NCBI RefSeq assembly: GCF_037042905.1
Contig: NC_087246.1
Span: forward strand, 13,844,233 to 13,908,232
DNA length: 64,000 bases
Direction: 5' to 3'
From: Lytechinus pictus
Lineage: Eukaryota
Below, piece after piece: positions 20,111-50,168 of this stretch (position 1 is the stretch's first letter; every line of letters begins with the position of its first letter). The notes below the pieces were generated by a model that did not search any database, was not told where the DNA came from, and was given only the letters and a program-made list of their open reading frames with translations. The position numbers were made by a program, and so were the translations under genes.

Positions 20111-20140
20111 CTTTGTAATGCTTATGTTTGTATATAATGT

Positions 20141-20303: not shown

Positions 20304-20961
20304 ATGTTTGGCTGGAAGAAAAAGAAGAAGGAAAACAAGAATACTTCCTCACCCTCTGGAGGTTTTTCATCATCTCTGAACAACCTCCTCAAAGGTTCGC
20401 CCAAGGCCAAGAAGGCCAATAAGCATGGTAAAACTGATATCCTCAGCGGTAGTCAGACATCAGGGAGCAACTCTCCGCACTCTGTCACCGACCGAGCCCA
20501 CCTCACAAACACTCCCACCTCGTTCATCTCCAATGGCTCAGCTTCGCCGTCCCCCAGCAACAACTCCAGCCAGATCACCTCCCAGTTTGTGCAATCCTTG
20601 CCACCGCCAGAATACTCTTTGCGTGTGCCTCCAGAACACAGTCGCCTGACGCCAAAGACAAGTAACTCTGATCACCCATCTTTGCGTGCTACTTACACTC
20701 CACCTCCTGGGTATGGCATTCTGAAGCAGGTTGGTCGACCTGGATCCTCTGCTTCTGAATTGTCCAATGCATCCAGACTCACTTCACCCTCAGCTGAAGG
20801 GGAGGATGCAGACTTTGATGTTACTGGAGAATCAAACAATGTGTCAAAGAGTGCAAACAGGAGCACTCATCCTTCCAAGCCTCTTGAGGATTGGTCAGAA
20901 GCAGAGATTCTGCAATGGTTGAATGACAGTGATCTTGAGTACTTTGCTGACATCTTCCAAG
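20304..20961 (+). CDS. Large gene exon 1. MFGWKKKKKENKN..., an S/T/P-rich disordered N-terminus, ending in the start of SAM domain 1 (...WSEAEILQWLNDSDLEYFADIFQ).
   Basis: ATG at 20304 after an in-frame TGA at 20268; donor CAAG|gtatgt; 658 nt, ends phase 1. Matches ORF 20271..21044. Confidence 0.75.
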
Positions 20962-23118
20962 GTATGTTATCACAATATTATCATGCTCATTGCTCAACAA
21001 TGTACTGTACACTGTTTAAAATTTTAAAATATCTGAAGGTCTAACTATTATAGGGGAAGTTTACCCTGACAATAAATTGGTTTAATAATTAAAAGCGGAA
21101 CAAATAGAGAAAAATATTGGCATTACAAACATGATATTGAAAGAACATCTTAACATAGAGGTACAAATGTATATGCCAGAGAAAGTATACTCCTTTTCAA
21201 TCATGTTTTTTTTTTTCTACTTTTTTTTTTGGGGGGAGAGGGGGGTTAATGTGTTGAACTTGTATTCACACAACCTAATTAAATTCTGATTGATAGATTC
21301 AATAAACATGTATACACCGAGTCATTACATGTATATTCATTTATTTGAATGTAAAATATTGGACACTTTATCCCAATTCAATACTGCATACATACGAAAT
21401 CTACTCTGAAAATGGATGAAACAAGATTGTCTTCTGGCAGTCGGTATCTTGCTTCCGTTCCCTATAAAATAATCCTAATACTTTAAGATCCAGAAGCTCA
21501 AAGTAGCATGTGTCACGCTGGAAAAACTTTGGAAGGATTTTCAAGGAGAAAATTTATTATTTGTGTCATCTGAAGTATTGTACTTAAAATGAAAGTCAAA
21601 TACATATGTAATGCATGTTTTAAACACACTTGAAAATTTTCAGAATAGATCAATTGTCCAAATGATGTCAATGATGAATAATTCCTTTTCAATCAATATT
21701 GTACTGTTTATATCATTCAAAATAGTACATTTCCTCTGCGCATCACTGTTAAAAATACATATTTATTCTTCTGTAACTTTTTAACATTATTTTCTTTTTG
21801 ACACCAAGTGTAATTCTCTCAACAAAAAGTTGTTTGTAATTATGCAGATTGATAAGAATTCGTCATTTTACATGTTGTATAGTAAGAAAGAGTGTTGAAA
21901 TACATTTTGAAAAGTGTCCTTGGTAAGTTTATACCCGTATACATGTATACAGTATTTTTTGCCAAGTACCAGCAGAATTTATTGAAAATTCCCGCCTATA
22001 TCATGTAGGTCAACTGAAATCAATCCCCAAATCCATTTTAAAGCAGCTACATGTAAAATTACCCTGCTTTTTTCTTTCAACTAAGATGTTTTTGTGTCCT
22101 AAATTTTGATGCCCTTGGTTTTATACTATACATGATGTATACATAATTTTTTAATTCCCTGTGTCTGTTTGATTATAAAGTATAGAACAAATGTTCAATT
22201 TATGTGACAAATTTGCAGCTAGTCACTGAAATACCATTAGTCCATTAGCTCAGTTATACATGTAAATGTAATTTAACTGTTATCGTGAACAGGTTTATGA
22301 AATTTACATTCATTTGTCTCAACAGTCATTAGTTCAGGACCCTGTTGCATAAAAGTTACCAATTATGGTAACTTTGCCATCCAATGGCTACTACCATGGT
22401 AACACTGAAAAACAGATGGTAACACTGAAAAACAGCCAATCAGAATCAAGGATTTCATGCAAGTTACCATTGCGTGGCAAACTTACCCCTGTTACCATGA
22501 TGGTATTTATCTTTTACACATCAGGGCCCTGGAGTTTATAACCTGTATTAAAGTTTATTGTACAAACTGCATAACTTGGTATGAATAAATTCATTCAGTG
22601 GCCAATTCTACCTTATCTCCTAATTTTCAGGTCAGGAAATATCCTTCTATTGAAGCGAAGCAGAAGTAAATGAGATACTTCCCAAATCAATTATTTCTTG
22701 TTTCCTTGCTTTTAGGGAAGTTGTTTTTCAAATTGATGAACAAACAAATGATCAATTTTGAGAAGATACATAGATCTATGATCTATATGCTTATTTTCAG
22801 TAAAGTTTTTAATTGCTACATGTACAGTATGCCAGATCTATGATGAGAGTAGATTAGGTTTAGATAGTAAAACATTAATATTTACTTTTACTATGTGGAG
22901 TCTCTAGAATACGTCATTGATCCCCTCCTCCAATGACTGTTGTTGGTTTTTTTTTTTTTGGGGGGGGGGGTTTCAGTGTAGAATTGGTTGTGTTATTTTT
23001 ATTGTATTTAATACTTGACATGTACTAATTCTGTCAAATTCATTAATTCAGATACATGTATTTCTTCCTGTTTGTGTCATTTCTTAAATATTTGCTTCCA
23101 ATTTTCACAATGATACAG

Positions 23119-23169
23119 GTTGTGATATTGATGGGGATTACATTTCCCAAGTCACTGAAGAAGATCTCG
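23119..23169 (+). CDS. Large gene exon 2 (GCDIDGDYISQVTEEDLG), SAM1 continued
   Basis: Acceptor tgatacag|GT and donor CTCG|gtaagt; phase 1 in, phase 1 out. Confidence 0.7.
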
Positions 23170-23959
23170 GTAAGTATGGAATGACTGATCACTATATTTG
23201 ATAAACTATATCTACTGTGTATATAATACTCAATTACATGTATACATGTACATAATCTTACTCAATATGTTCTTCCATTTTATCATTTCTTTTGCTTTCT
23301 TTTTAAAAGGTATTGTACCTATTAGGGTTGGACCTTATGAACCAACTTTCTTTGATTGTTTTGTACTTTCTGCAATTATGGACTAACAATTTTTGAAAGT
23401 ATTATGAATGATAATAACTAATTCAGTGAATTAATTTCATTGTGATTTGATTGTGGTCTCTTTCAGTATGCGAGTCAATAAAATGAAACCTACCAAAAAT
23501 TCCACCAAGTTCATTTTCTGCGTTTTTGTTTTCTTTATTTGAAAACAAGCCTTTTTCAGGGCCACTTTTCTGTAGGGTGTATCACGATATCATATTAGGG
23601 GTTCAATAATTATCCAAGAAGGGAATTGAGGCAATTCATTAGTTCATCCAAGGTCTTGGCCTTCCTGGATGTTTATTAATTTCAAAGACCTTGAAAATGA
23701 AGTGATTATTTGTGTACAGGATCTTTATGGATGTATGAAACTGAAAAGAAAATATTGTTGATGATGGAAATAGAAGTTATTGCCACTCTACTATTAAAAT
23801 GTATAGTATTTTCCCCATTATATTTCTGTTTTCAAAGGATTTGCATTTGATACAAAAACTGGAACAGGTTGTTGATAGATGTATAATGATAAAAGTCTAA
23901 TTTCAGCATCAAAATTTTCGCATTCAAGTTATTTTTTTTTCCTTTTCTATATGCTTCAG

Positions 23960-24054
23960 TTGACTTGGAAGTAGAGGAAGGGAGCCTTAGAGAACAGCTT
24001 TTGAGAGAAATCACAAACCTTAAACAAGAACTTGCACAAGAATCAAATACTCAG
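23960..24054 (+). CDS. Large gene exon 3 (VDLEVEEGSLREQLLREITNLKQELAQESNTQ), SAM1 C-terminal helix
   Basis: Acceptor atgcttcag|TT and donor ACTCAG|gtagta; phase 1 in, phase 0 out. Confidence 0.65.
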
Positions 24055-27049
24055 GTAGTAATAATCTTGCTTCTTTGTATACATGTTTGTTAATTCAGAG
24101 AAACATGAATTAGAGTGATGGGGGGGGGGGGGGGTTAAGCCTTGAATTACTTTTTTTTTTTTTGCATCCTGAAACGATTGGAGTCATTATTACTGAAGGT
24201 GATATTATTATTCAAAAAATAAATTAAAGATTTGTATTTTTTTTTAGTTATACAAGTGAATTTTCAATTAGAATGTTTTTTCCCTTGACAAAATAACTTG
24301 TATCCTTGAGCTATTGGAATCAGTATTTCCTTCATGCATATTACAAACAAAAGTAAACTGTTTGTATTCATTAAGGCTTTACAAATACATCAACAACACA
24401 ACAGTACAATATCATTGACATTGTTTTTTTTTCAAATGCAACCATGACATGTAGTCATTTTCATTACTTACTAGTATTTCTAATAAGTAATGAAACTGGA
24501 CCACACGGGTCCTGCTGAGTTCCTACGGGAGTTACCATAAACTGAAACTCAAACTGATTTATAAGTTAGTATTTTTTACTCTGTAAATAAAGAGGCTTTA
24601 ATAGGAGGTAATAATAATTTGTGAACAAATTTTCGGCATTACTCCTATGTGTTTAAGATCGCATGCTCGATCTGTGATAAAAATAATTTTTTACTCTGGT
24701 GAATTTTGTCATGAAAATTGTTGAGCAGAAGATATGTTTACTTCCCTGTTCTATCTTAATTTACTACACATTCCAGTACACATACATGTTCAGCATCCCT
24801 AGGCATTGATACAATGGGCAAGATTGCAATTTGAATGCAAAGGAAGATCCTAAATGTATTCTGTGTAAGAGGAAGTATAAAGAACTGAGAAGCTTTGCCA
24901 TTGATTCCACTCAATTCCTTGTGAAGGAAAAGCCTCCCATTCATGATTCCCACTTTCATTGACACTCACATGCTAGACAAGCTTTAAAGGAAATTATATC
25001 TATTTTGACATCGTCTTGAAAGAAATCTAAATATTGAATTGTTTTTACAAAATTTTCATAAGTTTTCACAAAAGAAATAACGGAATAATGCTTGGTTTTG
25101 TTAAAAAGAAAAGAACATAATTAGTTGTGAATGTTGCCCTTTTTTCTTGCTTATTATAAATAAAGGAAGATTTTGATACATTGTTCATGTAACCATTTTT
25201 TCAAAGAAAATTTGTAATCATGTATAATATGAAAAGTATATTTTTTTGTACATTTGTGTAAACTCTGTATTTTACTTTGATGATATTCATCAAAGTAAAG
25301 TTAAAGGAAACTTTCTTTATTAAGATACATGTAGATAAACTTTAATTTCCATCTTTGATCTCCTTGTGCTAAATATGCAGTAGGTAGCGGAAAGTGGGGT
25401 AATTGAGGCCATGGGATAAATAAGGCCCCCAGTGAGTTTTTAGCTTACTGCTCAATTATACCAGTGCCAAAAGGGATTGTGGTTTGTGTGGTATTTGAGA
25501 CAGTTCCTTAGCACACATTTTGAGCATAAACAATGTCTCATAGCTCAATGCGAATAGCCAGGAGGAGCACAAACCCAGCGGCACCTCGAAATTGAAATTT
25601 TTAAAGTAGCATCGCCACTTTAGAGAGGCGAGTACAGTTATGTGCATAAACTTTCATCTTAGTTTACTTTTGTCAGGCATCATTATGCTTGCCAGTACTG
25701 TACTAAAATTCACCACTTTCCCTCTTATTTTCTGACCAGAATCCTATGAACTCAACATGCCTGATGGGGCAAATGAGGCCCCCAGATTAAAACATAATTA
25801 ACCCTGTATGGTTACATCTGTTAAAACAGTAAATTGCAGTGTAGACATCTCCACACATGCTTTATGTACACGTAGGCCTACACTAAAAGTGTCCATTTCC
25901 AATAGACATGTAGAAAAATATAACTCTAATAGTTGAAAAAACAATCCAACAATCACTTTTTTTCATAATATTGGATAGGATTATTTAAAAAATAAATCCT
26001 TAAATGGGGGCCTTTTGGGAAAATAAGTAAATATTAATCATGTGACTGTTACTAGTCAATGTTCAGTGATTGTGTCAAACCAACTGAAAAATTTTTGCTT
26101 TGAATATGGCAACACAAAGTAGTTTTAAATCGAGGAGCCTCATTTTCCCCATATTGACGGAGCAAATAGGGTCCCCTGACAACAATGTTTAATGCTTATT
26201 AATATGCAAATGAGATTGATTTAGTTCTTATATTTCTATTGGATAATGCAGGTCTACTGTAAGACCTATTATTAGACATCTTATAATGTTACTACTGCTA
26301 TGCATTAACAAGATATGATTGGAATTGTGAAAAAGATGGCCTTATTTACCCCACTCTCCCCTACATAGTATTCTTCACAGTTGGTCTTTAGATTATTGAT
26401 GATTTCCTCTTTATATTTACTAGGATATCATCAGATATATGCAAAAATTAAAACAGAATGCTAAGCAAAAAACGAGAGTGCAGAAAAAACTTGCATTTCT
26501 AAAAATTCTGGTTATTTATTATTAAAGTCTGTCATAACAATTGTAAAATTTATCTTACATCATTCAGCTGGAATGGTATGAGCTTTAATGAGAAGTTATT
26601 TTCTTGTTTAAAGCACAAATTACATTTTAAAATCTTCCATATTTATGTAGCAAATGTTAGCCGTTTTCTTTTCAGATTTCTTTGATATAGTACTCAGCCT
26701 AGAAATATGTATTTAGGCATGATCTATCAGCATCACACTCCCTTTAAAGTAGTCGATTCTCTATGTTTCTTTAATAAGTTGACTGAAGTACAGACAGCTA
26801 ATGATTCATGTATCATAGATTTACTGGGATTGTCATTCTTAGACCCAGCTTAGCAGTCGCTATGACAGGGTTTCTTAAAAACAAGGTATTTTTAGGCTCT
26901 CTACCTTGTCACGAATGTCACATTCTCAGCCATATCTAATTATAATGGATGGGATTAGAGATGATAGTATGAACATGTGATGATAGATTCCCAGGGTCTC
27001 AAAATGAAGGAGCTTTGAATTTATTTGGGAGAAGTTTTAAATATGGTCC

Positions 27050-27450
27050 ATGTTTAGCAGTGTTCGGATCATTCTGATTTTCTTCTTCCTCTTTATGTTT
27101 TCTTATTCTTTCTCATTCTCATTTTTCTTATCTATCTATTATTCTTTTTTTGTGTTTCTTATCTCCCCCCCTCCTGTCACTTTATATTTCTCGCTCTCTC
27201 TGTCTGCCTTATTTCTCAGTCTCTCTCTCTCTTTATTGTCCATCTCCCCCCTTTTCATTTAATATTAAGATTCCACCCTCTCTTTCTATTTTGTGTCTAA
27301 TTTTTTTTTAAGTTTCCTACATTACATTTTGTCCTTTTTCTTTTACCCCTTTCTTGTTTTTTTTCTATAAATACAACTTGATTGCTCTGTCTTTATGATT
27401 TTGTTTACTCTCTTACCCAAAATACACTCCCTCGGTTTTATATCACTGTA
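27050..27450 (+). repeat. Pyrimidine-rich low-complexity block about 270 bp upstream of exon 4
   Basis: Same composition and strand as 19800-20110. Confidence 0.8.
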
Positions 27451-27718
27451 TTTTTTCCTGCATAGCATACACAGAAATCTCTTATTTGCTTAATTCTGAT
27501 GCATGACCATATTAGTGACATGTTAATTTTCATCTGACCACAGTCATTAATACTTTTTGCTCTGCAATTAAAATCTATTATACATAATTTCCATATATTG
27601 AAATGAGTCCGTAGTCAAAATTGTGTTTTCAACCCCATATTATGTACATTTACATGAATGATTATCGTACATGAATATGTATATAGTTTCATATACTTAA
27701 TTGCTTGCATTTTTGTAG

Positions 27719-28073
27719 CAAGCTGAACACAATGGAGAAGAAGAAGAAGAACAATCTAGCTCAGTGCATTTTGGAGACACCTCCGATGAAGATCTCTTCC
27801 CAGACCTTCCCACCTCACCCTCCCTTTCTGCCCTCAAGAGTGGTCCAAAACCCTCCATGACATCATCCGTCAAAGGAAATATTTCAGAGACACAGAATGA
27901 GATAAAGGAGGATGGAAAAAAGAAAATGAAAGAGAAGGAGCAGAGGAAACGACAAGATAGTGATTTGTCTTCTATCTTGAGTGGTAGTTCTTTGAAGTCA
28001 TCAGGGTCAGGGAGTGGACCACATAGAGGACAATCTTCTGATGATAGAGGAAGCAAGATAAACTCATCTTTAG
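27719..28073 (+). CDS. Large gene exon 4 (QAEHNGEEEEEQSSSVHFGDTSDEDLFPDL...SKINSSL), an acidic/serine-rich linker
   Basis: Acceptor ttttgtag|CAAGC and donor TTAG|gtgagt; 355 nt, phase 0 in, phase 1 out. Same frame as ORF 27764..28258. Confidence 0.75.
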
Positions 28074-28845
28074 GTGAGTCATCAGAATCAGGTGTTCTTG
28101 AAATTCTTTCTCTATTTAATAAAATAAATACATTCTTTCCCTTCCGTCAATTAAATTATATGTATCTAGTGATATTGCCCAAAAGTCAATCAAAACCCCG
28201 GCATGGATTATATATGTACATGTACATTACTCAATGGGACCTTCTGTCTTCTGGCTAGGCACTCAGAATTTACAGTAGGTTACATAATGGTAATTAATAC
28301 ATGCTATGCAGCGTAGTTTCAAAACTGATTTGGCTACTCTGGGTAAAGAAGATATTGGTAACTCTATTTGTGGTAGTTGTTCAATTTGTGACGTTTTTAA
28401 TTTATTCTGTGGTAGTTTTATAATTTGTGACAAAGTTAATATTTCTACTATTAGGTAACAGACTTTAATGATTAGATTAAAGAGTGTACATGTACATTTG
28501 TATATACATGTACTTCATCAATTTTGATGATGTACAGTGTATGGTATAATATGACTTATTGAAATAGAATGTATTGACTCGTTTTGTGTCCTTTTCTTTG
28601 AAGGAGTTAAATTTGTTATTTCTTATTTTTGTTCCTTCTACTCAAGAAGACTAAAATTGCAGATCAAACCCACAATTAAAAGTTGTATGATTGGTTTGTC
28701 TCTAAAACGTTCAATAAGAATATAAAGATATTGTGATTATAGTTGAATAGTAAACCATTTTGCTTTCATTTCTTTCTATATATTATTAGATTTTACTTTA
28801 AAACTTCATTTCTATTCCCTTTTTAATTCTTTCATCCCAATACAG

Positions 28846-28980
28846 AAGCAAGCCCAGAACATGCAATCCCCAAATCTAGCATTCCATTTAGCAAGAAAAG
28901 GGTTTCTCAGTGGACAGAGAGAGATATCATACATTGGTTGGATTCTATAAACCTGGGACATCTAGCTCAAAACTTCATTG
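28846..28980 (+). CDS. Large gene exon 5 (EASPEHAIPKSSIPFSKKRVSQWTERDIIHWLDSINLGHLAQNFI), start of SAM domain 2
   Basis: Acceptor caatacag|AAGC and donor TCATTG|gtgagt; phase 1 in, phase 1 out. Confidence 0.75.
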
Positions 28981-29978
28981 GTGAGTATAAAAAAATAAAG
29001 CTCTGTTTGCAAATGATGTTATGAAACTGTTGAACAATAAACAAGGGAATCTAGCAATTCAGTTCCCTTCTCAAGACTTACATGTATTTGCTACATGTAG
29101 GGTTTAATAAAGATAACATTACAGCAAAATCAAAGTACATGTAAATATGAACAATTGAATGCTTGCCAGGTGTTTTCATTTATTGGTGAGAAGTGGGAGG
29201 GAATCGGGATGGCCAAAACCTTGTTGTCAAAACAAAAAAGCAAATCGTGGCATGCATTTTAAAGAAACTTATTAGATTATCTCCTCATAGAACAGTTACC
29301 TCTCCTGCAGTGTTTTGGATTCCACCCAGCTTTGTCATCAGGCTGAAAATCATTTTGAAAACTTGCAGATTACAATATATATATATAAATAGATTAGAAA
29401 AGAAAAGACAAATGGTTAACATTCAATAGTATGATAGAAAAATTTTGGAACTACTTATTTAGTGATATGTGGAGTATCTTGAAGTCAAAACTCTTTTTTT
29501 GGGGGGGGGGGCAAATTTTTATCATGATATTCCACGCAAGTATACAGTGCGTTATACATATATATTGGATTACATCCATCTTGATTTTTTTTATTTTTAT
29601 GTATACATGTACATGTAAATACACAGGGCTCAACATTAGCAGTGGCCCGAGGCAACCAGAAATGAGAGTTGGGCCACCAAAATTCTGTACAAGCCCACAC
29701 TTGGTGGCCCGGTTTGGCTATGAAAGTTTTGATAAATTGTAATGTTTTCTATTGTTTCAAGGCCACCAAATTTTTTTGCGGGCCACCAAAAATATGAAAT
29801 TGATGATTTGATCAAGAAAAATGTGGAGCCTTGAATACACCCTGTGTTAGGTACACATTCTTTGTTCAACATGTACGTATGTCACCCTGAGGCTCTAATG
29901 CCATTGGTTATCCCAGTAACATTGTTTTTTTTTTCATTCTTGTAATCGTATTCACATTGTTAAACATACTGATGATTA

Positions 29979-30285
29979 ATGTTTTTCAAAGTGTATCCCC
30001 TGCAATTTAATCAATTCCACATTCTCTCTCCTTTTCACCTTCTTTCTCTTCTTCACCCTCTCCCCACATCAAGTCTATCTTATGTCTGTCTTTCTGTCTG
30101 TCTCTCTCTCTCTCTTTATGTCCCTTGCCCTTATTTCTCTTCTTCACCCTCACTCTCTCCCACATCGTTTCTTCTTTCATCTCATCTCTCTCTGTCCTTT
30201 CATCTCCATCCACCTTCTTCATTTGCCCCTTCTCTACATCATCCTCTATTTGATGACTATTATCTGAAATATATTTGATATACTT
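29979..30285 (+). repeat. Pyrimidine-rich low-complexity block ending about 8 bp before the acceptor of exon 6
   Basis: Same composition and strand. Confidence 0.8.
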
Positions 30286-30292
30286 CTTTCAG

Positions 30293-35600: not shown

Positions 35601-35616
35601 GTATATAATCTTGTTT

Positions 35617-40947: not shown

Positions 40948-41061
40948 ATGGCCAGTATTGAGGAATCTTTAGTACCAGGTAAAGATACTTCAACACCAAG
41001 TGCAGCTCCAGCGTCAACCCAAGTCAAAGTAAAGGACATCAGTCCTATTCCAGAAATTCAT
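40948..41061 (+). CDS. Large gene exon 14 (MASIEESLVPGKDTSTPSAAPASTQVKVKDISPIPEIH). Alternatively this is the first coding exon of a separate downstream gene.
   Basis: Acceptor ttgatag|ATGGCC and donor ATTCAT|gtgagt; phase 0 in and out. It begins with ATG straight after the acceptor. Confidence 0.55.
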
Positions 41062-41385
41062 GTGAGTAGCAGCACAAAGATATTTTTCATGTTAAATATT
41101 CTTTTGAAATCTTGATATAATCTGTTTCCATATTTTGATAGTGACTGATGGTTTTGTTCCTTCTTGGCCTGATGAATGGCCACATATATACCTTGAATTG
41201 TATATCTGCCTTGTATATCTCTATATGGAACCACTAATTTACACTGATATCAATGGGGCAAAATTAGTATTCATACCAGCATGTCTTGTGCGCCATGATC
41301 TGATTCCTAACAAATTTTAAATAGGTTCTGGGTGTTTTTGATGATGCTCTACCAGACCATCATACATGTATCTAAAATGCTGAAA

Positions 41386-41560
41386 GAAATAACCCCCACC
41401 CCCCCCCCCAAAAAAAAAAATAATAATAATAATAATAATAATGATATTAATAACAAAAAAACAAAAAAATGAATGAATGAATGATTGAATAATATATAAA
41501 CAAATAGATAGATAGATAGAGAGATGAATAGATAGATAAATAAAAATAAAATACTGTGTG
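41386..41560. repeat. Compound simple repeat: C13, A11, (AAT)7, (GAAT)n, (AGAT)n
   Basis: Direct. Confidence 0.9.
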
Positions 41561-43312
41561 ACATCATCACTATAGTACTCTATTCTGATATTAAAAAAGA
41601 AATCATTACTGAACATCATGAACATGCACATTCTTCCAATGTGCATTGCATGCTGTAATTGGCAATGATGGAGTGTCTTACAGGAAATACCAATGTGTCT
41701 GCCTACTCCTTTGCTTTCATCCCCTTCTCTAACCTGATTGGTCATCACAACTCTCTAATGCCCTTTTTGTCTCCTTGTTTCTAGTGTTGCTGTTGCATGT
41801 CTATGGTCTATATTATGTTTGTTCCACTAGGATCGAAAGCTTAGGCCCCTTTTGACTCTCTAATTTACTCCATTGGTTCTCTTTTATTAGATAAGCAGTT
41901 TTCAGCAGCTTTTTTCTGTCATTGAAATACCAACCAAATAGTAGATTTCCATCCTGCCTTGATTTGAAATGTACTCTCTTAGTATGTAGTAATCTACTTG
42001 GGCATGTGGCACCTGCTTTGCATTTTTAAGATGTTAAATTCATAAAATGATTGACATGTAGAGATCTCCACCTTTCAAATATTTCTGTTGGTGGGGTTTT
42101 TTAATATGCTTCCCTTGAACTTGTATCAAAGTAAGTGAACTTTGTGTGATTTTGAAACTTTTATTCTTTCTAATGAGTAGCATAATAATAATTAGTAGTA
42201 GTTTGAGGATCTAGGTTTAAAATATTTCAAGGAAAAGAAAAAAAGCTAAAGATTCCAATTTTACTTCTAACCTCTTAATTATTGTTGCATGATTTACAAT
42301 AAAAAATGTACTTATTTTTTGCAAATTAATTCATTGTGATAAATTGAATATACATTATACATGATCAGTGTTAGGTCCAGCGGAGATAGGAACGGGGGGG
42401 GGGGCACCCTTCTACAACACACAAGTCTGATGACTTTTTTATTTTTTCTTGTTTGCTTGTAAGATTTTTTGTAAGGAATATGAGACATATATAGTAATTT
42501 TTGTAGTGATAACTTCTCTCTTTTGGGCATTAAAGGGATCGTTTAACTTTGTGAGCAGCTGATTTAAAAAATTCTCAAACTGAGACAAAACATGTGTATG
42601 AGTGCATGTATTTGTCCTCAAAAACCCTGAAACAAACCACAATATAGAATGAAAAACTCTAATTTAGATACAAGTAGCAATTTATTAGCTTGATTTTGAG
42701 AACCGTCTAGTAGACAGGTTAAGCTTATGACCAGTTTACTCCAATTCAAAAAGTCAGTTGTCTATTTTGACTGCCTTCTGTTGTGTGTATCTCCTATTTA
42801 CACACACACGCTATTAGCTGCACTGAACATTCAGTGTATACCTAGTACACACTGTATGTAGGCCATGCTGTGTTCATCTAGAGTTCGTGTGTTGTGGTGC
42901 ACAGGGTTCACTGTATACACATAGTCATTGAAACCAACTCCCAATTATTTTCAAACTTTGGTTTACATCTTTAATGTTTTAAAATTGATCCTGTGGATAT
43001 AATACTTTGAAACTTTTGGGATGGTATTTTTACACTATAAGCCTAATGTTAAGCCCATTTTCAAGAACCAAAATAAGAATTTTTTAAATCAGAACAAAGT
43101 GAAATGATCACTTTAATGATTTCATCTCTCTAAAAAAAATGCCAAACAAAATGAAACAATTTTCTGAATCTTCTCTTGTGCCATTCATTCATAAGTTCTT
43201 GGATCTGCTGCTGTACATGATCATAAATCTTTTTCCCCACTTTACTCCAAGTCTTTCTAATGTTTATAATTCAATTTATTATGTAATGTTAAATTTATCT
43301 TATACCCCTCAG

Positions 43313-43384
43313 ATAAATGATGTAGAAGAAGACAACTCCAGTGAGAAATATATTTATAGAGATCTAGAGGAAAAAAATAGACAG
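43313..43384 (+). CDS. Large gene exon 15 (INDVEEDNSSEKYIYRDLEEKNRQ)
   Basis: Acceptor cccctcag|ATA and donor GACAG|gtgagc; phase 0 in and out. Matches the tail of ORF 43139..43393. Confidence 0.6.
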
Positions 43385-44085
43385 GTGAGCTGACAGTTTT
43401 ATAAAAAAAAAAAATTTATTTGAACAATGTATACAGAGATGCCAGTCAGGCTTTTGCATGATTTCAGGCTCTGGCAACTTCCAGTTCAGGCTCTATTTTG
43501 TACTGAATATATGGGGGCTTTAACCAGTTTTTGCTTGTTTTCAGGACCAGTAAGTAAGCTGTCTGGCATCCTGATGAATAGAGGAGAGATGCTTACAGCA
43601 TGCTAACATAAAAAGCCTAATAATATTTTAGAGAAATGATGTTCTAAAATCAATTTGTGACAGTTTTAATTCTAGCCATGTACATAGACATAGGAAATTA
43701 TTTATATTCTTGACCATATTCTAGAGTATTAGAAATAGATACAGTGTAAATATTTTTTTATGGTTTAAACAGGAAAATTTAAGAAAAGACAATTTGTTAA
43801 AATGATTGATGATTTTCCAAATACCTATTCTTATACTAAGGTGGTTTGCCATAAGAAAGCAGCAACTTGGTTTTAAAACTTATGCATTATAAAAAGTGAA
43901 TATCCCTAAGCTCATACTTTAAACATATTGTGATCATATTTTCATATAAATTACAATGCAGAAATGTGGTTAGAATTTTTTAATCATAAAAAAGGATGTC
44001 ATTCCCATGTTAGGATCTTGTCTTTAGGACATATTTGTGCATTATATTAATGTATTGCCTTTTTATTTTCATGTTATGTTTACAG

Positions 44086-44197
44086 CTGACTACATTACAA
44101 GAGGCTCTAGCTGATCTCGGGAACTCCTACAATCAGATGAATGTAGACGCTAGATTACAAGCACTGGAACAAAGACTAACATCTTGTCCTGAAACAG
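44086..44197 (+). CDS. Large gene exon 16 (LTTLQEALADLGNSYNQMNVDARLQALEQRLTSCPET), coiled coil
   Basis: Acceptor tttacag|CTG and donor AACAG|gtaaga; phase 0 in, phase 1 out. Matches ORF 44035..44319. Confidence 0.65.
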
Positions 44198-45066
44198 GTA
44201 AGATTCCATTATCAACATTTATTGCCTTGTTAGTCAGAAATTTTTCTTTCAGGATGGTGATCATATTGCAGCTATTTCATGAGAAACCTGGGTCCCGTTT
44301 CATAAAGACAAGTTTGTAATATCACATGCACAATAGTTTACTTACTATCAGTCAATCAAATTGAATGATTTCAGTAGCTTTAAATTGTTATTCCAAATTT
44401 GTTATTGTAACAAGATTTATGAAACAGAACCCTTGATAAAATAATGATGAAATGCAACAAACATGTCAATCAGCTTTCATAGTTTCATTTCACTGATATA
44501 AGGGGTGAATTTTAATTTCAGTATTGTGAGAAAGGTACCATAAAAAGAATACTGAATGTTTATACTTTCACAGAATTTATTAGTCTGAATTGTGCTATGT
44601 TGTCAATAGTTTAATTGGTACACTGGAATGGGAACTAATAAATTTTATACTTATATTTTTTTACAATGTACTTTTATATGAAAAGTGTTTGTAGTTGTGT
44701 GTAGAGGTAAGCAACCAGGGGACCAATAGCTTTAGGTCCTCTTAGAGGATTATGAGGATAAAAGCCTTAATAAAGCACTAGTACATGAGCTGTGTATGCT
44801 TTTTATGTTGTATTACCTTTAAATGATGATAGAAATTAGAATTTTTGGAGTGCATTATATAAATAGTGGGAAGTCGGTTATGTAATAGAGTAGATTATGT
44901 GTATAGTAAACACTTAATTATCTTGTGTATAGTTTTTTTTTCTGAGAGAGCAATATGAAGAAGAGACGATGAAATAAAAAGAAACATAGCTACAAAAAGA
45001 AAAAAAATGAAAAATGAAACCAGAAAACTGTATTACATGTTGTCTCTTCCTTTTTTCCTCCCCAAG

Positions 45067-45199
45067 AATCCCTACCAGAGAGGCTTCTTGAGTTATTAGC
45101 AGAACTGGAAGCAGCTAGTCAAGAAATGGACGACAGACAGAGAGACCTTGATGAGATCAAACAAAGCGTTGAGGAGTTAGGAGCAAGCATGGATGACAG
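45067..45199 (+). CDS. Large gene exon 17 (ESLPERLLELLAELEAASQEMDDRQRDLDEIKQSVEELGASMDD), coiled coil
   Basis: Acceptor cctccccaag|AA and donor GACAG|gtatat; phase 1 in, phase 2 out. Confidence 0.65.
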
Positions 45200-45757
45200 G
45201 TATATTAGCATACAATAATAGATCTCAATCTAAGTTTAAGTAGTTTAACACAATCACATTGTTAAATTACTCCTACACAATTCTTGTATATATTGCATAT
45301 TTACACCCAAAAAATTGTGCCTCGAAATTGTTTTGAACAGTTTGCAAGATAAAATTCTTTATATATTTATAAATTATACTTTAAAAAACATTATGTTGCC
45401 TGCAATCTATCAATTCTGGGGCTGAGAAGGAGATTTGTTACACCTCTGAAATTCTTATAACATGTGAAATTATGAATTAGCATGCTACCCAAACTGCCAT
45501 GAAACTTCGAGATGTTTAAAATGTGAAGGAATATGCACTTTCTGGTATTTGGGAGCAAATGTGGTAGCCCATGTTGCGGAATATTCAACTCTTCACCCTT
45601 ATGCGGAGTAAAGCTAATTCCCCCCTAATCAGAAGATTCTACATCATGGATGAGAAATAAAAAGCTTCCTATATAACAGTTAAACATGAATCCATGCATG
45701 AAGAAATGCCCATGAACATAATGTCACAGTTGTTCTCAATGTTTATTTTTTCTACAG

Positions 45758-45881
45758 CACATCATCAATGTATGAAGTGACTCTAGCCGAGGTAGCTCTC
45801 CTAAAGGCACAGTATGATCACAGTACACTCCTAGCTAACATGGAGATTGCTATTGCTGACTACCAACTTCAAGCTGCAAAG
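45758..45881 (+). CDS. Large gene exon 18 (STSSMYEVTLAEVALLKAQYDHSTLLANMEIAIADYQLQAAK)
   Basis: Acceptor ttctacag|C and donor GCAAAG|gtaatt; phase 2 in, phase 0 out. Confidence 0.65.
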
Positions 45882-46511
45882 GTAATTAAAAAATCCTGAT
45901 GAGCAATGTAAATTCTGAAGTGTATCTTATTGACAACTGCTGCATATTGAACTCTCCCATTTCCCGCTATCATTCATAATGTCAAATTTGATATTGTTTT
46001 ATTACTTTAAATACCTCTTTTGAAATTATGTGTAATGAAGAATATCTCTAATGCTCAGTCAATTTTACTTTCAAAAACAAATTCAAAAACAAATATTCAA
46101 GTTGTCATTATCGCCACTGAAATAAAAATAAATGCTGTAATACTCTACTTCAAAAGGAAAGAGAGTTATATCTTGTTTCTTTACCTTTCTTTTACTTTAT
46201 TTAAATAATTTTTTTTTTACATTTCCCGTACACTAATTAGTAAATTCTATTCATTTTGATTTTCTACATGTTTTATGTATTGGCTTTTATAGATGTGAAC
46301 TAGCTGGTACAGACCCAAGAAGACAGAGTTCAAGGAAATTGTTCTTCTTTCATAATAATCAAGGTTTCCACTTTTGTGTACCACTGCATGCATTATAAAT
46401 AAAGGAATGGCCAAGGACTTGAATATTTTTTTTTACAAGATTGAGTGCATTCACAAGGCAGATCAGTAGCAGCACTTTTTCTTCTTCTTTTTTTGTACTT
46501 TTGACTTTTAG

Positions 46512-46723
46512 ATCGAGGAAGCCAAGAAGAAGGCTGCCATTTCTCCCCGTGGTGCTCCCAACTTCTACAACACCTTGCCTCATAACCAGCAGTTTTCAGT
46601 GTTTGCTCTACATGCTAGTGCAAGCTCACAGGGTTTTCACTTTCAGGTGGCTGAACAAAACTCTCAGAGTGGAGTCTACATACAGAGCTGTCGCTCTGCA
46701 GATGTGCTGCGTGTTGGTGATAG
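46512..46723 (+). CDS. Large gene exon 19 (IEEAKKKAAISPRGAPNFYNTLPHNQQFSVFALHASASSQGFHFQVAEQNSQSGVYIQSCRSADVLRVGD), N-terminal half of the PDZ domain
   Basis: Acceptor ttttag|ATCGAGG and donor GATAG|gtgagt; 212 nt, phase 0 in, phase 2 out. A PDZ-like beta-strand pattern with QGFHF in place of the usual GLGF loop. Confidence 0.65.
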
Positions 46724-47223
46724 GTGAGTATACCACTTTCATAAAACTTGTTATTGATATGTCATAATGTCTCTGATATAAGCTACAGAAATAGTCCTAA
46801 TTTGTTGGCTGAAAATAGGGTGTTCATCGATAATAAGTTCTATGAAACAGCACTGTATTCATATTTGTAATATATTAGTATCGGACATTTTCTGTTGAGG
46901 TTGCCATTAATTTGTACATTTTATTAAAACTTCCTTCAAAATTATGTTTTTATAATTTTATATTAGATCCCCTTTAAAAATACAGATATGAAACTTATAT
47001 ATTACATTTATGTCAGTGTAAAAATGGATCAATGATCAAGACCTGTCTCATGAGAAAGATAAATATGATATGTGAGATAGTTGCCTGTATGATTGCCTGA
47101 ACATGTTTATATATAGTATGAAAAACCATCACTGAGACACAATGATATTGCTTTATTTACAGTAGAATGAGGATTGTTTTTCAGATAGCACTTTAATTTT
47201 ATCCTTGAAATCTTGTACAACAG

Positions 47224-47442
47224 AGTCGTAGAGGTCAATGGTCACAGCACGTTGGGGTCAAGTGTCTTAGAGGTCAACACCTTGTTGAACCGGTCCAAGA
47301 AAGCCCAGCTGGTATGCATGCGGGCTGGACGGGATCAGGTTAGCATGGAAGTGGACAGACTGACCAGACAACTAGCCACTGCTTCAGAACACTATGAGGC
47401 ATGCTGGCAGGAGAATAAGAGGTTAACAGATATAGTTCATAG
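47224..47442 (+). CDS. Large gene exon 20 (RVVEVNGHSTLGSSVLEVNTLLNRSKKAQLVCMRAGRDQVSMEVDRLTRQLATASEHYEACWQENKRLTDIVH), PDZ C-terminal half, then the start of the coiled coil
   Basis: Acceptor tacaacag|A and donor CATAG|gtaaga; phase 2 in, phase 2 out. Matches ORF 47213..47446. Confidence 0.7.
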
Positions 47443-47454
47443 GTAAGATAATAG

Positions 47455-47700
47455 AGAGGAGAAAGGAATAAGCAGCAGGATTTGATTGTGATAGATGAAG
47501 TGATGTTGGTGGCGGTGACGGTGGTACATATAGTAGTGACCATGGTAATGATGGTGAAGATGGAGAATGGTCATGATGAAGATGTTGCTGTTGATGCTTA
47601 TGGTAGTGGTGATAGGGCTTATGATGCCATTGATCATAATATTTGTGGTAGTGTGGTGGTGATGATTTTAATGGTGATGAGGAGGAGGAGGTGTTGGTGG
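47455..47700. repeat. Imperfect GTG/ATG-rich minisatellite (GGTGATGRT-like units) in an intron
   Basis: Direct; it produces the spurious ORFs 47437..47703. Confidence 0.7.
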
Positions 47701-47859
47701 TAGTTAAGTTTGCTTATTTTAGGGGAAGGAGTGGAGAGGATGGTGGTTATAATTATGTCTTCATGTTTGCTATGATTTTCTAAATCTTACCATAAAAGAA
47801 TACCATGTATACTGAACTCAAGCCATGAATAGTTGATTATCTGTTGCCTTCTTCTTTAG

Positions 47860-47932
47860 ATTGAGACCTCTAGAGCATCAGATCCTGGAACTTACTCAGC
47901 AGAAAGTCACAATGCAACAACTTCACCAAAAG
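47860..47932 (+). CDS. Large gene exon 21 (RLRPLEHQILELTQQKVTMQQLHQK), coiled coil
   Basis: Acceptor ttctttag|A and donor CAAAAG|gtaaca; phase 2 in, phase 0 out. Confidence 0.65.
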
Positions 47933-48257
47933 GTAACAATGTTTATAGTTCATATATAGAGTCATGATCAATGAATGCAGGCATCCAGTTGAAATATATG
48001 CAATGATATTCTCTGCTGTAAATTTTATTATTTTATATATTAGAATATTTTTTATGATATTGAAAGACCGGTTTCGTGGAATGAATGGAAGTGGTCTTCA
48101 ACCGCTCTCATGATTTAACTTAGGTTCAGTACAAGCCATTTTATATGAAATGTCTTTTTCAATACAGACTCCCAAATTTCAATTGCAATGTCATTCTATG
48201 ATTCCCCGAGTTTGGCTGCAATGTATCTCTTAATATCTGTTTTGAATTGTTGTATAG

Positions 48258-48380
48258 ATTGAGACATTAGAGTCTAGGAATCAGGAGCTATCAGAGGAGT
48301 TGCGTATGGCCCATGAAGGGAACATCAACCAATCAAATCATGCTATCAGTCGATTGCAGGGAGACAAGGAAAGATTAGAG
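48258..48380 (+). CDS. Large gene exon 22 (IETLESRNQELSEELRMAHEGNINQSNHAISRLQGDKERLE), coiled coil
   Basis: Acceptor tgtatag|ATT and donor TTAGAG|gtaagt; phase 0 in and out. Confidence 0.7.
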
Positions 48381-48884
48381 GTAAGTGTTTGTATTTTTGT
48401 TTATATCCTTGTGTCATTTCAGTTAGGATTGCTTGATTGTGATTTGGGCTATTACTTAAAATAATCAACTTTTTTTGTCCATACGACCTCCATTTTTCTT
48501 TATTCTTTATTTCATAGCCATTCAAGCCATGATAATTTGAGTATATTTGCAAACTTTCAAATGAACTAGAAAACTGAGAGAAATCATTTCAGCAAGGTCA
48601 TACATAGATGGGTCAGATTTACGCAAATTCCCAATCGTTAAAAGTGATGATAATCCTTCTTCTCCTCCCCCTCTTATATTGGTCTAACTGGAAAAGTATC
48701 TGTCCTTTGAATGCTAATCAGCAAATGGTGTTTTTTTGTAGGGGTCCATAAGATTCTCTTTGAGAATAAATCTTTGCCTTTAACCTTATGTGTGACTAAT
48801 TAATCATTTGATCTCATGACAGACTTGTCTTGGTCAATATAAGGAAAGCATAATAACCTGTTTAAATAAGAATGTAAAGTATTA

Positions 48885-49060
48885 AGGCCTCCGCACACCT
48901 TATGATTGGTCTGCGACCTGATTTTTGAATAAAACGTAGTCGAATTTGATGCTCATATTGAGACATGGATATCATACTGTGTAATGTTCTAAATCACTGT
49001 ACGAATACCTATGTTCAAATCTGGGACTATGCTTTGATCCTTATGTTAAGTTTACCTAAT
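48885..49060 (+). repeat. Dispersed repeat, copy 2 (3'-truncated), in another intron of the same gene
   Basis: Aligned with 33069-33210. Confidence 0.7.
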
Positions 49061-49103
49061 AAGTTTACCTAAACTTGTATACTTTTTTATTTAACTTATA
49101 CAG

Positions 49104-49163
49104 ACAAGGGTACGACAACAGGAACAGAAGCTTAAAAAGTTGGAAGCTGAATTAGCACAGAAG
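49104..49163 (+). CDS. Large gene exon 23 (TRVRQQEQKLKKLEAELAQK), coiled coil
   Basis: Acceptor ttatacag|ACA and donor CAGAAG|gtaata; phase 0 in and out. Confidence 0.65.
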
Positions 49164-49283
49164 GTAATATACTTGAATGAATATATTCTTATTGCCTCAT
49201 ATAAATTTTATGTCATATATAATGCTTTTGTGTGGTATCAGTAATAAAGAAGTTATCTTTAATCTGTATTCTTTGTACCATAG

Positions 49284-49442
49284 AACTCAGAGACCTCATC
49301 TATAGTAAAGGAGCGTGATGATGCCCTGAGTAGGCTAAAGTCTATTGACCTCAATCGGAATGAAGAGGTCAAGGTCGATGACCTTATTGCCAGTGCTAAT
49401 AATGATGCACCACTCTGGGAAGTTCTTAAACCTGCCAATAAG
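49284..49442 (+). CDS. Large gene exon 24 (NSETSSIVKERDDALSRLKSIDLNRNEEVKVDDLIASANNDAPLWEVLKPANK)
   Basis: Acceptor gtaccatag|AAC and donor AATAAG|gtgagt; phase 0 in and out. Confidence 0.7.
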
Positions 49443-50027
49443 GTGAGTAAAATTAAAAGTTGTAAAGCCCATGTCTGTTGACACAAAGTATGCAATTAAA
49501 TAGATAATTGCTTGATAAAATAAACACAAAAATGAGCAACTTAGTAAATACTGTGCATGAGAAAGAAGTCTACTGACAAAAGTAAGTAGAATTAGATGAT
49601 GAATGAATATTAAGATGAATATTTATTAATAATCAGAAGTAAATGTCGATGAATCAATAAATGGATGAATGGAATGTATTGTAAATTTGGATGAATAAAG
49701 AAGACTGAATGGATATATATATATAAAGTCATCAAATGATAGATGGTAGATTGATGGATTGATGTAAAAACCAGTAAAGAGTTTTAAAAAAAGGATGAAA
49801 ATGTTCCTCAAAACACGAAGTAAAGAAAGAATAACATATGGTTGTTTCTTTACTTTTTATCTGAGATATATACATATATATAGGTATGATATATGAAAAG
49901 ATATAAATAGTTTATAGAGAAATTAAGATATACCTCAGATATTATATTAATTTATATTATATTTTGCTTGCGATATACATGTGAATAAATCTAATATGAT
50001 ATGTGTGTGTGTATTTATCTTTGATAG

Positions 50028-50168
50028 GATGAGATACTTCATGTGCTTCAAGATGAGTTAGAGGAAGCAGGGAGACAGAAACAGTATTTAGATCAACTCT
50101 ATACCCTTATGTTAGAGAGAGCTCCAGAGCTATTAGAACATCTAGAACAGGACTTTGAAGGAAGGTAG
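50028..50168 (+). CDS. Large gene terminal coding exon (DEILHVLQDELEEAGRQKQYLDQLYTLMLERAPELLEHLEQDFEGR*), stop TAG at 50166-50168
   Basis: Acceptor tttgatag|GAT; the in-frame TAG overlaps a donor-like AAGG|TAGGT. No convincing downstream exon was found, so I treat it as terminal. Confidence 0.6.
   Translation, partial: DEILHVLQDELEEAGRQKQYLDQLYTLMLERAPELLEHLEQDFEGR

Follow-up and report, generated by a model that had tools for sequence, protein, structure and literature searches.

Related systems and domain architecture

Several described systems share parts with the protein reported here. Sprite (Drosophila sprt / CG30023 orthologues) carries a MASIE motif, a coiled coil containing a motif of the [AV]-E-[LI]-[ED]-Y type, a short-loop PDZ domain (G-D-R-L-x-E-V-N-G) followed by another coiled coil, and a C-terminus of the x-W-C type. 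Its function is essentially undescribed in the literature searched; one paper counts sprt as a ‘cell motility’ gene and gives no data on its protein (PMC12355558). Rab11-FIP proteins have a Rab-binding domain, for which structures of FIP3 with Rab11 exist (e.g. 2HV8, 2D7C, 4D0M), and possess C2 (class I) or EF-hands (class II). The Rap effectors afadin and RADIL have RA domains and, further on, one PDZ domain. PDZ domains of RIM recognize CaV2 channel C-termini with the motif D/E-D/E/H-W-C-COOH (PMC7456537); CaV2 C-termini are also bound by Mint PDZ domains (PMC11405698).

The window analyzed here is a stretch of 64,000 nucleotides from Lytechinus pictus. On its + strand, the region 20304..50527 is one protein-coding gene encoding a large multidomain scaffold protein. 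Its 27 exons code for 1617 aa, or 1588 aa if cassette exon 14 is skipped (Table 1). Every intron of the spliced model is GT-AG, and one phase-consistent open frame runs from the ATG at 20304. All exons were recovered by tblastn at 75–100% identity with the Lytechinus variegatus homologue P0001 (1614 aa) as query, and the full-length model is 96.5% identical to this prediction, the orthologue models used for comparison being mostly computational predictions. The initial annotation had proposed 25 exons and about 1580 aa. Its single + strand gene starting at 20304 stands, while exons 14 and 27 were missing and the 3' end was wrong: the stop at 50168 results from read-through into the intron beyond the donor after 50164.

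The protein starts with a basic N-terminus (M-F-G-x-K-K-K-K is common to the aligned orthologues), followed by SAM1, SAM2 with a conserved helix, an acidic insert and the RA-RA pair. After these come a Ser-rich linker with the cassette exon, a coiled coil, the PDZ domain, a second coiled coil, a FIP-like helix and the EEFC end. Each element listed initially (two SAM, acidic repeat, two RA, coiled coil, PDZ, coiled coil) is supported by scans or models. As stated initially, the protein is also distinct from afadin, CNK, liprin, caskin, neurabin, ARAP and RGS12, in agreement with the Pfam scans, in which no FHA, DIL, CRIC, PH, GAP or RGS domain was found.

Table 1. Features of the gene, with positions in the window and the basis of each assignment.
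Feature	Position	Strand	Content	Basis
Exon 1	20304..20961	+	Start codon, basic N-terminus MFGWKKKKK, Ser/Pro-rich stretch, SAM1 start	SAM matches
Exon 2	23119..23169	+	SAM1 middle, CDIDGDYISQVTEEDL	tblastn, splice model
Exon 3	23960..24054	+	SAM1 end	tblastn, splice model, Pfam
Exon 4	27719..28073	+	Inter-SAM linker, acidic and Ser-rich	tblastn, splice model; weakly conserved in alignment
Exon 5	28846..28980	+	SAM2 start, WTERDIIHWLDSINLGHLAQNFI	tblastn, splice model, Pfam
Exon 6	30293..30343	+	SAM2 middle, DHDISGKELMEIDMSLL	Detected only via homologue; splice sites present
Exon 7	31068..31169	+	SAM2 end	tblastn, splice model, Pfam SAM_2
Exon 8	31444..32485	+	Conserved SGYEKQKYMAAV helix, then ~300-aa acidic insert, KKKKGG at end	
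Acidic tandem repeat in exon 8	31635..31864	+	Unit 99 nt (33 aa), 2.3 copies	Tandem Repeats Finder
Exon 9	32820..32917	+	Conserved basic LFKLKEVISPS, RA1 first strand	tblastn, splice model
Exons 10-11 (33804-33950, 34404-34522)	33804..34522	+	RA1 body	Pfam RA, structure model
Exons 12-13 (35441-35600, 35917-36101)	35441..36101	+	RA2, then Ser-rich linker	Pfam RA, structure model
Exon 14	37550..37636	+	87-nt in-frame cassette, ISLGSSYGSSEVLCSSRIDNEKLSKLEKE, new relative to the earlier model	Homologue comparison
Exon 15	40948..41061	+	Conserved MASIEESL	M-A-x-I-E invariant, urchin to insects
Exons 16-19 (43313-43384, 44086-44197, 45067-45199, 45758-45881)	43313..45881	+	First coiled coil	tblastn, splice model
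Exons 20-21 (46512-46723, 47224-47442)	46512..47442	+	PDZ, second coiled coil start	Pfam, PDB profile, Foldseek
Exons 22-25 (47860-47932, 48258-48380, 49104-49163, 49284-49442)	47860..49442	+	Second coiled coil; conserved P-L-W-E-x-L-K motif	tblastn, splice model, alignment
Exon 26	50028..50164	+	Rab11-FIP-like helix, KDEILHVLQDELEEAGRQKQYLDQLYTLMLERAPELLEHL	Pfam RBD-FIP, PDB profile
Exon 27	50497..50527	+	31 nt, true C-terminus SELSGSEEFC and stop codon	tblastn, acceptor and stop present

In the gene's own protein, Pfam SAM_2 scores 81.3 bits over two stretches (curated cut-off 20.5), and Pfam RA gives 37.4 bits for RA1 and 28.4 bits for RA2 (cut-off 21). In the family alignment, K-L and W are invariant in the exon 9 segment, as are the columns P-K-G-K ... 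S-L-S-T-P in RA2. The nearest solved RA sequences, by profile against the PDB, are those of RADIL (3EC8) and afadin (1WXA, 6AMB). Unlike in these two proteins, the RA domains are here directly adjacent and FHA/DIL are missing; conversely, both afadin and RADIL are devoid of SAM domains and of the FIP-like helix. The AlphaFold model of the RA pair (pLDDT 84) consists of two ubiquitin-like folds, with predicted packing against each other (pTM 0.78). It resembles tandem ubiquitin-like structures, e.g. talin F0F1 and di-ubiquitin.

The PDZ domain (about aa 1303–1388, with VGD|R split by an intron), initially called atypical, scores 21.2 bits with Pfam, slightly below the cut-off of 23.2. The call is rescued by two other results. 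The family profile matched NHERF and PATJ PDZ domains in the PDB (E ~1e-6), and the AlphaFold model of the region (pLDDT ~80–90) gave only PDZ domains among the Foldseek top 50 (TM 0.7–0.8). Since the usual short first helix is missing and Q-G-F-H-F takes the place of G-L-G-F, peptide binding by this domain is not assured. Long helices are modeled on both sides of the PDZ, that of the first coiled coil abutting it. The first coiled coil has the [AV]-E-[LI]-[ED]-Y-type motif region and is homologous to insect Sprite.

C-terminal helix and tail, and a possible adaptor role

Like Rab11-FIP proteins, the protein has a ~40-residue helix behind a coiled coil at its extreme C-terminus, with the pattern Y-[IL]-D-x-L-x-x-x-[MLV]-[LM]-E-x-x-P-x-[IL]-L. 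Y-L-D, M-L-E and A-P-x-L-L are invariant across deuterostome members. Five PDB profile matches have E <= 10; the top four of them are all the Rab-binding domain of Rab11-FIP3, aligned end to end, with E values of 0.08–0.35 only. Pfam RBD-FIP was matched in 9 of the 12 family members tested (best E 2e-9). The homologue P0170, which also has the SAM-RA-RA-coiled coil-PDZ-coiled coil order, reaches 29.9 bits against a cut-off of 23.3, and 39.8 bits for its PDZ. The gene's own helix is sub-threshold at 14.9 bits, and its Rab binding is putative. In contrast to Rab11-FIPs, the protein has neither C2 nor EF-hands and adds SAM, RA and PDZ domains as well as a conserved acidic tail ending in F/W-C. 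The helix had been overlooked in the initial annotation, as had the conserved EEFC end and the true last exon.

The product of exon 27 matches P0001 at 100%. An x-[F/W]-C end is common to most family members, whether deuterostome, mollusc, cnidarian or arthropod, and the observed C-termini are E-E-W-C, D-D-W-C, E-Q-W-C, E-K-W-C and E-E-F-C. Judged by sequence, the E-E-[F/W]-C terminus resembles the PDZ ligand of CaV2 channels. It would be a putative ligand on a cytosolic scaffold and not on a channel, and deuterostome tails have F at the position of W in the CaV2 motif.

The analysis shows the gene structure, the identity of the domains, their conservation and the membership in the family. The best explanation as a whole, to which we give somewhat better than even chances, is a full-length gene of the Sprite family whose protein would be a dimeric adaptor, connecting GTPases of the Ras/Rap and Rab11 types with PDZ partners. 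The adaptor role and the binding partners that we infer are as follows. The protein would form a coiled-coil dimer acting in membrane traffic and signaling. Its RA pair may bind a GTP-loaded Ras/Rap-family GTPase, and its C-terminal helix a Rab11-type GTPase, by analogy with the FIP domain, which does so as a parallel dimer. The PDZ could capture a peptide from the C-terminus of a cargo or partner, and the SAM domains may provide oligomerization. The acidic aromatic-Cys tail would be a PDZ ligand, either for the protein's own PDZ by fold-back or for RIM/Mint-type PDZ domains. Against this reading counts that the modules are separable, as arthropod Sprite keeps the tail but no longer has the SAM domains, the RA domains or a FIP-like part.

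Alternatively, the helix could serve only for dimerization or as part of a coiled coil, without Rab binding, and the EEFC tail could be the functionally decisive end, docking on RIM/Mint-type PDZ domains. The protein would then be a presynaptic or secretory-site scaffold and not a Rab11 effector. The tail is indeed the most widely retained feature, present even in the helix-less arthropod members; many members end exactly in E-E-W-C or D-D-W-C, fitting the published RIM ligand motif (PMC7456537), and the FIP similarity of this gene's protein is sub-threshold. However, the helix retains Y-[LI]-D and P-x-[LI]-L, non-heptad positions that characterize FIP domains, and exceeds the Pfam cut-off in a homologue, and deuterostomes have F rather than W. 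We consider this alternative possible but rather unlikely.

A single gene of an old animal family

The initial annotation had raised the possibility of two adjacent genes fused in the model: a SAM/RA gene whose end lies near 36.1 kb, followed by a coiled-coil/PDZ gene with its ATG at 40948. Exon 15 does open with an ATG behind a 4.8-kb intron, and the downstream half can stand alone, as arthropod Sprite consists of the MASIE motif onward only. Such a misjoining is nevertheless very improbable, being contradicted by orthologues of equal domain order. Predicted proteins from echinoids, an ophiuroid, asteroids, crinoids, a holothurian, a hemichordate and amphioxus all span the 36101 to 40948 junction. 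The questioned intron contains the conserved in-frame cassette exon, which is included in P0001, several orthologues and the older S. purpuratus model P0006, and skipped in isoforms P0002, P0007 and P0012. About half of the intron positions are shared with amphioxus. At least 13 of 26 coincide with the amphioxus locus L001, including the intra-PDZ intron, the tail mini-exon and positions on both sides of the junction. In short mollusc proteins of 430–580 aa, the SAM module of the ‘upstream’ half is combined with the PDZ-coiled coil-tail module of the ‘downstream’ half, and a coral order of SAM-RA-RA-coiled coil-tail likewise mixes both halves.

By sequence comparison, this single gene is the full-length version, as found in deuterostomes, of an old and uncharacterized animal family. 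Its arthropod members are annotated as ‘PDZ domain-containing protein sprite (sprt)’; the literature search returned no functional papers on this family. hhalign against arthropod Sprite gave a probability of 99.7% (E 3e-26, 219 columns), and the insect matches carry the names sprite or sprt. Arthropod Sprite differs in being 600–850 aa long; both SAM and both RA domains as well as the FIP-like helix are missing, and it has a long disordered tail instead. The architecture of the sea-urchin protein is shared by all five sampled classes of echinoderms, by a hemichordate and by amphioxus, with at least 10 ambulacrarian species. In cnidarians, molluscs, a brachiopod, a nemertean, Ciona and teleosts, the protein is present in reduced form.

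The scaffold had initially been thought to be possibly lineage-specific, and one could imagine an echinoderm-specific Ras/Rap scaffold recently assembled by domain shuffling. In favor of this, the ~300-aa acidic insert, which contains the 33-aa repeat, is restricted to sea urchins and absent from non-echinoid orthologues, and there is no tetrapod relative among the matches whose source was looked up. Against this, the same order and tail are found in homologues from amphioxus, cnidarians and a metagenomic eukaryote, the core is strongly homologous to arthropod Sprite, and the family reaches lophotrochozoans and teleosts. Only the insert is echinoid-specific, and a recent assembly appears highly improbable. 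About 400 aa of heptad-rich sequence and orthologue record names (‘titin homolog’, ‘interaptin-like’, ‘autophagy-related protein 23-like’) would suggest a giant filament protein or a structural protein of the coiled-coil type. This reading is scarcely credible, as Pfam scans found neither Ig, FN3 and kinase domains nor calponin-homology and Atg domains, and these mutually conflicting names look like low-complexity or coiled-coil artefacts. The acidic repeat itself scored 341 with Tandem Repeats Finder, with 84% matches.

Gene model

The window is AT-rich (G+C 32-40%), and its plus-strand coding potential is split into short open segments, as expected for an intron-bearing animal gene. Joining these segments by splice sites alone gave a chain of 23 exons with one frame clash. 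The best database match is P0001, the predicted orthologue of Lytechinus variegatus (1614 aa). With this protein tblastn placed every exon and added four small ones that the ab initio chain had missed (see the table), so that a complete and clash-free model was obtained only because a homologue was used. The final model comprises 27 exons with GT-AG at all introns and a single open frame of 1617 aa closed by TAG, and is 96.5% identical to P0001. The gene start is sound, since the orthologues open with the same M-F-G-x-K-K-K-K.

The initial annotation had proposed 25 exons. These are the exons of the present model minus a cassette exon and the last exon, as fits the quoted 36101 to 40948 junction and the end at 50168, and the remainder stands. 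The end at 50168 was a read-through: a donor follows 50164, and the conserved SELSGSEEFC is encoded 330 nt downstream. The correction thus supplies the true last exon and the 87-nt exon, which behaves as a cassette because some isoforms include it and others skip it. 'X2' isoforms from S. purpuratus, a feather star and Ptychodera lack it and other isoforms carry it; such alternative use may be old.

Features of the gene under study and of the surrounding window (nucleotide positions in the window unless marked aa)
Feature	Position	Strand	Evidence
Gene under study, 27 exons	20304-50527	+	
SAM domains	aa ~195-262 and ~406-473		Pfam SAM_1/SAM_2
Exon, middle of SAM2	30293-30343	+	tblastn with P0001
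Pre-RA exon	32820-32917	+	tblastn with P0001
87-nt exon, in frame, conserved	37550-37636	+	tblastn with P0001
Exon 26, C-terminal helix	50028-50164	+	
Last exon, 31 nt	50497-50527	+	tblastn with P0001
Open segment with MORN repeats (YEGEWYADKRSGWGRMYFADGSTYEGEWYNDERNGQG)	6354-6626	-	Pfam MORN, E 4.6e-8
Two open segments rich in Thr-Pro repeats (RTPQ, GTPRQTPGRQTP)	57033-57401, 58130-58468	-	no Pfam match
S1 RNA-binding-domain exon	62456-62713	-	Pfam S1, E 5.6e-6
Pyrimidine-rich simple sequence	~19800-20170, 27040-27310, 29980-30280		S-L-S-L or F-L-S-L runs in all three plus frames

SAM, RA and PDZ domains

The domain calls of the initial annotation were checked by profile HMM and structure-based searches, as it had proposed, with scores taken on the window's own translated sequence against the Pfam curated cut-offs. 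The two SAM domains are recovered by SAM_2 (81.3 bits, cut-off 20.5) and SAM_1 (65.2 bits), each in two stretches. Both RA units also lie above the cut-off of 21 bits (RA1 37.4, RA2 28.4), and RA matches were found in all seven family members scanned. The AlphaFold model of the RA pair (pLDDT 84, pTM 0.78) consists of two adjacent ubiquitin-like folds, with units of the beta-beta-alpha-beta-beta-(alpha)-beta type. Its Foldseek matches are talin F0F1, di-ubiquitin, ISG15 and the USP7 UBLs, the first three being the best, and the nearest solved RA domains by sequence are those of RADIL and afadin. In RA2, P-K-G-K and S-L-S-T-P are invariant and appear to mark a conserved surface. Some RA-fold domains do not bind Ras. 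The acidic repeat, a 99-nt unit present in 2.3 copies, sits within an insert of ~300 aa found only in sea urchins. Outside animals, P0114 of Capsaspora owczarzaki is related in the RA pair only and has three RA stretches beside ArfGAP, ankyrin and talin-like domains; on this basis the adjacent-RA module may be older than animals, in another context.

In the window's sequence the PDZ domain scores under the Pfam cut-offs (PDZ 21.2 bits versus 23.2; PDZ_6 20.6 versus 27), and P0170, a metagenomic homologue whose domains follow the same SAM-RA-RA-CC-PDZ-CC order, clears the PDZ cut-off with 39.8 bits. Despite its low score the domain is secure, because a seven-member family profile matches the NHERF, PATJ, PDZK1 and Par-3 PDZ domains in the PDB (E 7e-7 to 1e-5), and because all of the top 50 Foldseek matches to its AlphaFold model are PDZ domains (TM 0.7-0.8, rmsd ~2 Å). 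This model, with pLDDT ~80-90 over the domain, agrees with the PDZ fold, which is typified by six strands, a long second helix and a peptide groove. The domain had rightly been called atypical: the first-helix segment is ~5 residues shorter and modelled as a loop, and the carboxylate loop is unusual, Q-G-F-H-F versus G-Y-G-F in crinoids and amphioxus (usual type G-L-G-F).

At the domain level the nearest known parts are the Rab11-FIP Rab-binding domain, the RA domains of RADIL and afadin, and PDZ domains of the NHERF type. The earlier exclusion of afadin, CNK, ARAP and RGS12 holds. Afadin and RADIL carry FHA and DIL between RA and PDZ, whereas no FHA or DIL domain was found in any scan of the window's protein, and both were rejected. 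CNK, with its order SAM-CRIC-PDZ-PH, was rejected too, as there is no CRIC or PH match and the order is interrupted by RA domains and coiled coils. ARAP and RGS12 would require GAP or RGS domains, none of which was found in the Pfam scans.

C-terminal helix, tail and predicted contacts

Conservation within the protein is highest over its final ~70 residues. The heptad-rich character of this end had been recognised, but its FIP-like helix and conserved tail had gone unnoticed. A profile of the C-terminal block searched against all PDB sequences gave five matches at E <= 10, the best four of which are the Rab11-FIP3 Rab-binding domain, aligned end-to-end (E 0.08-0.23); with a wider 12-member profile the same four structures came on top. 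Against Pfam RBD-FIP (cut-off 23.3 bits) the window's helix scores 14.9 bits (E 0.024), P0170, whose tail aligns unambiguously with that of the urchin, clears the cut-off with 29.9 bits, and nine of 12 family tails scanned singly gave a match (best E 2e-9). At the extreme C-terminus, behind the coiled coil, the urchin protein has Y1582-L-D ... M-L-E-R-A-P-E-L-L where FIP3 has Y-I-D ... I-M-E-T-N-P-S-I-L, that is a Y-I-D-type motif and a P-x-I-L end. The Y-L-D, M-L-E and A-P-x-L-L positions are invariant across deuterostome members; we take their equivalents to be Rab11-contact positions in the FIP2/FIP3 complexes. From the PDB and Pfam matches, the P0170 tail and these retained positions, we regard the C-terminal helix as a predicted FIP-like domain. 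Because Pfam scans found neither a C2 domain nor a significant EF-hand, the protein lies outside Rab11-FIP classes I (C2) and II (EF-hands), which were rejected, and at most bears a FIP-like domain.

In nearly all complete family members the last four residues are, in order, acidic, variable, F or W, and C. Deuterostome tails read E-E-F-C, mollusc tails E-E-W-C or E-Q-W-C, coral and Nematostella tails E-E-W-C, a jellyfish tail D-D-W-C, and insect tails E-K-W-C or E-Q-W-C; E-E-W-C also occurs among arthropods. The E-E-F-C of the window's gene conforms to the x-[W/F]-C terminus of the arthropod Sprite family. In PMC7456537 the ligand of RIM PDZ domains on CaV2 channels is given as D/E-D/E/H-W-C-COOH, and Mint PDZ domains likewise bind such CaV2 tails (PMC11405698). 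As far as can be judged from residues, the family tail matches the CaV2-type RIM ligand in the form given there.

What stands is a conserved multi-domain protein with two different predicted small-GTPase-binding modules, one PDZ domain flanked by long helices, two SAM domains and a PDZ-ligand-like tail. We rate the gene as a variant of the multi-domain small-GTPase effector scaffolds. As FIP domains bind Rab11 as parallel dimers, we propose that the protein would dimerise via its coiled coils. The RA pair could then bind a Ras/Rap-type GTPase and the C-terminal helix a Rab11-type GTPase, while the PDZ domain and the tail might provide further contacts or self-inhibition. On balance we lean slightly towards this set of contacts taken as a whole, the uncertainty lying mostly in the partners. 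If they hold, the protein would form a physical link between Ras/Rap signalling and Rab11-dependent recycling and would have a docking code in common with presynaptic calcium channels. The main alternative for the C-terminus is that the helix merely dimerises and that the tail, whose residues resemble the CaV2 ligand, is the functional element and docks on RIM/Mint-type PDZ domains; we consider this rather unlikely.

Family relationships and neighbouring sequences

A profile HMM from the RA domains to the C-terminus, run exhaustively against 1.84 billion representative proteins, gave 522 matches with E <= 0.001, many of them generic PDZ proteins. The source organism was looked up for ~30 of the 522. 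These comprise amphioxus (full architecture, E 2e-161), Ciona, Lingula, a nemertean, several molluscs, corals, Nematostella, a jellyfish, many arthropods and teleost fish; no tetrapod member was seen among these ~30. The teleost relatives, in which a divergent SAM is combined with a single ubiquitin-like domain, a coiled coil and a PDZ, contradict an absence of the family from vertebrates. Three of them, P0323 (Esox lucius), P0326 (Xiphophorus) and P0081 (Poecilia), are uncharacterised proteins with the same PDZ type and one SAM, without the FIP-like helix and the F/W-C end. Word-indexed searching by the C-terminal profile yielded nothing but unnamed coral and cephalopod fragments of exon size and was uninformative on vertebrates.

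The closest named relatives are those of arthropods, annotated as 'PDZ domain-containing protein sprite' or 'sprt', which are homologous and much reduced. They match the family HMM with E-values of 1e-20 to 1e-17. When the urchin-type alignment was compared, profile against profile, with that of ten arthropod members, the match had a probability of 99.7% and E 3.3e-26 over 219 columns, which take in the PDZ and the coiled coil on either side of it, and the core from the MASIE motif through these elements is homologous. Short motifs are also common to both: M-A-S-I-E, [AV]-E-[LI]-[ED]-Y-type, G-D-R-L-x-E-V-N-G and the x-W/F-C end. The profile match and the motifs therefore place the gene in an old family as its full-length deuterostome member; insect Sprite, judged by sequence comparison, is a reduced form. 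The suggestion of a lineage-specific scaffold does not survive the homologues in amphioxus, cnidarians, molluscs, arthropods (Sprite) and teleosts. A bolder proposal, which we consider improbable in its entirety, is that the family could be an unrecognised pan-animal dual-GTPase effector: the RA pair would sense Ras/Rap-GTP, the FIP-type helix would bind Rab11 on recycling/secretory carriers, the invariant [D/E]-[D/E]-[W/F]-C tail would use the docking code of presynaptic CaV2 for RIM/Mint, and arthropods, and apparently tetrapods too, would have lost or reduced the full form. If true, Ras/Rap signalling and Rab11 traffic would be tied to release-site scaffolds. Study of the family is feasible in sea urchins, amphioxus and cnidarians because these keep a full or near-full version.

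That two adjacent genes were wrongly fused across the 36101 to 40948 junction, as the initial annotation had feared, is very improbable: predicted proteins, mostly computational models, span it with one and the same module order in three sea urchins, a brittle star, starfish, feather stars, a sea cucumber, Ptychodera (a hemichordate) and amphioxus; the cassette exon is in frame and conserved; and short relatives combine modules of both supposed halves (in molluscs, proteins of 430-580 aa join SAM2 and the helix after it to PDZ, coiled coil and tail; in corals and sea anemones, SAM and RA-RA occur together with coiled coil and tail). Orthologous exon structure, also proposed as a check, argues likewise, since at least 13 of the 26 urchin introns lie within two residues of an amphioxus exon boundary when the exon ends of one amphioxus locus are mapped onto the urchin protein, among them those bounding the RA exons, the one splitting V-G-D|R in the PDZ and another that precedes the tail mini-exon.

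Each of the building blocks, namely SAM, RA, PDZ, FIP-type helix and PDZ-ligand tail, is well known. No functional account of their combination or of sprite/CG30023 was found in the literature searched, and the main text of the Rab-effector survey PMC4232348 does not include the family; the combination and the whole family thus appear undescribed in the searchable literature, bar the insect name 'sprite'. The gene itself is not new, because its orthologues are already publicly annotated as uncharacterised or oddly named proteins. The public names of four orthologues (P0001, P0005, P0012, P0006) conflict, being 'titin homolog', 'autophagy-related protein 23-like', 'interaptin-like' and 'glutamic acid-rich protein-like'. 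The titin, interaptin and Atg23 names were rejected; labels like 'titin homolog' and 'interaptin-like' mislead. P0006, an older S. purpuratus model, has a scrambled order in which exons 4-8 come after the end of RA2 and the MASIE exon.

No Rfam family at gathering score and no tRNA gene was found in the window (1-64000). Of the pyrimidine-rich blocks, one immediately precedes the start codon and the rest are intronic. The MORN segment probably belongs, as an exon, to an upstream gene transcribed from the opposite strand. The Thr-Pro segments lie downstream of the S1 exon on the minus strand, at lower window coordinates, and together they suggest a downstream minus-strand gene, which we presume, as a guess, to be perhaps of the Spt6/Spt5 transcription-elongation type.
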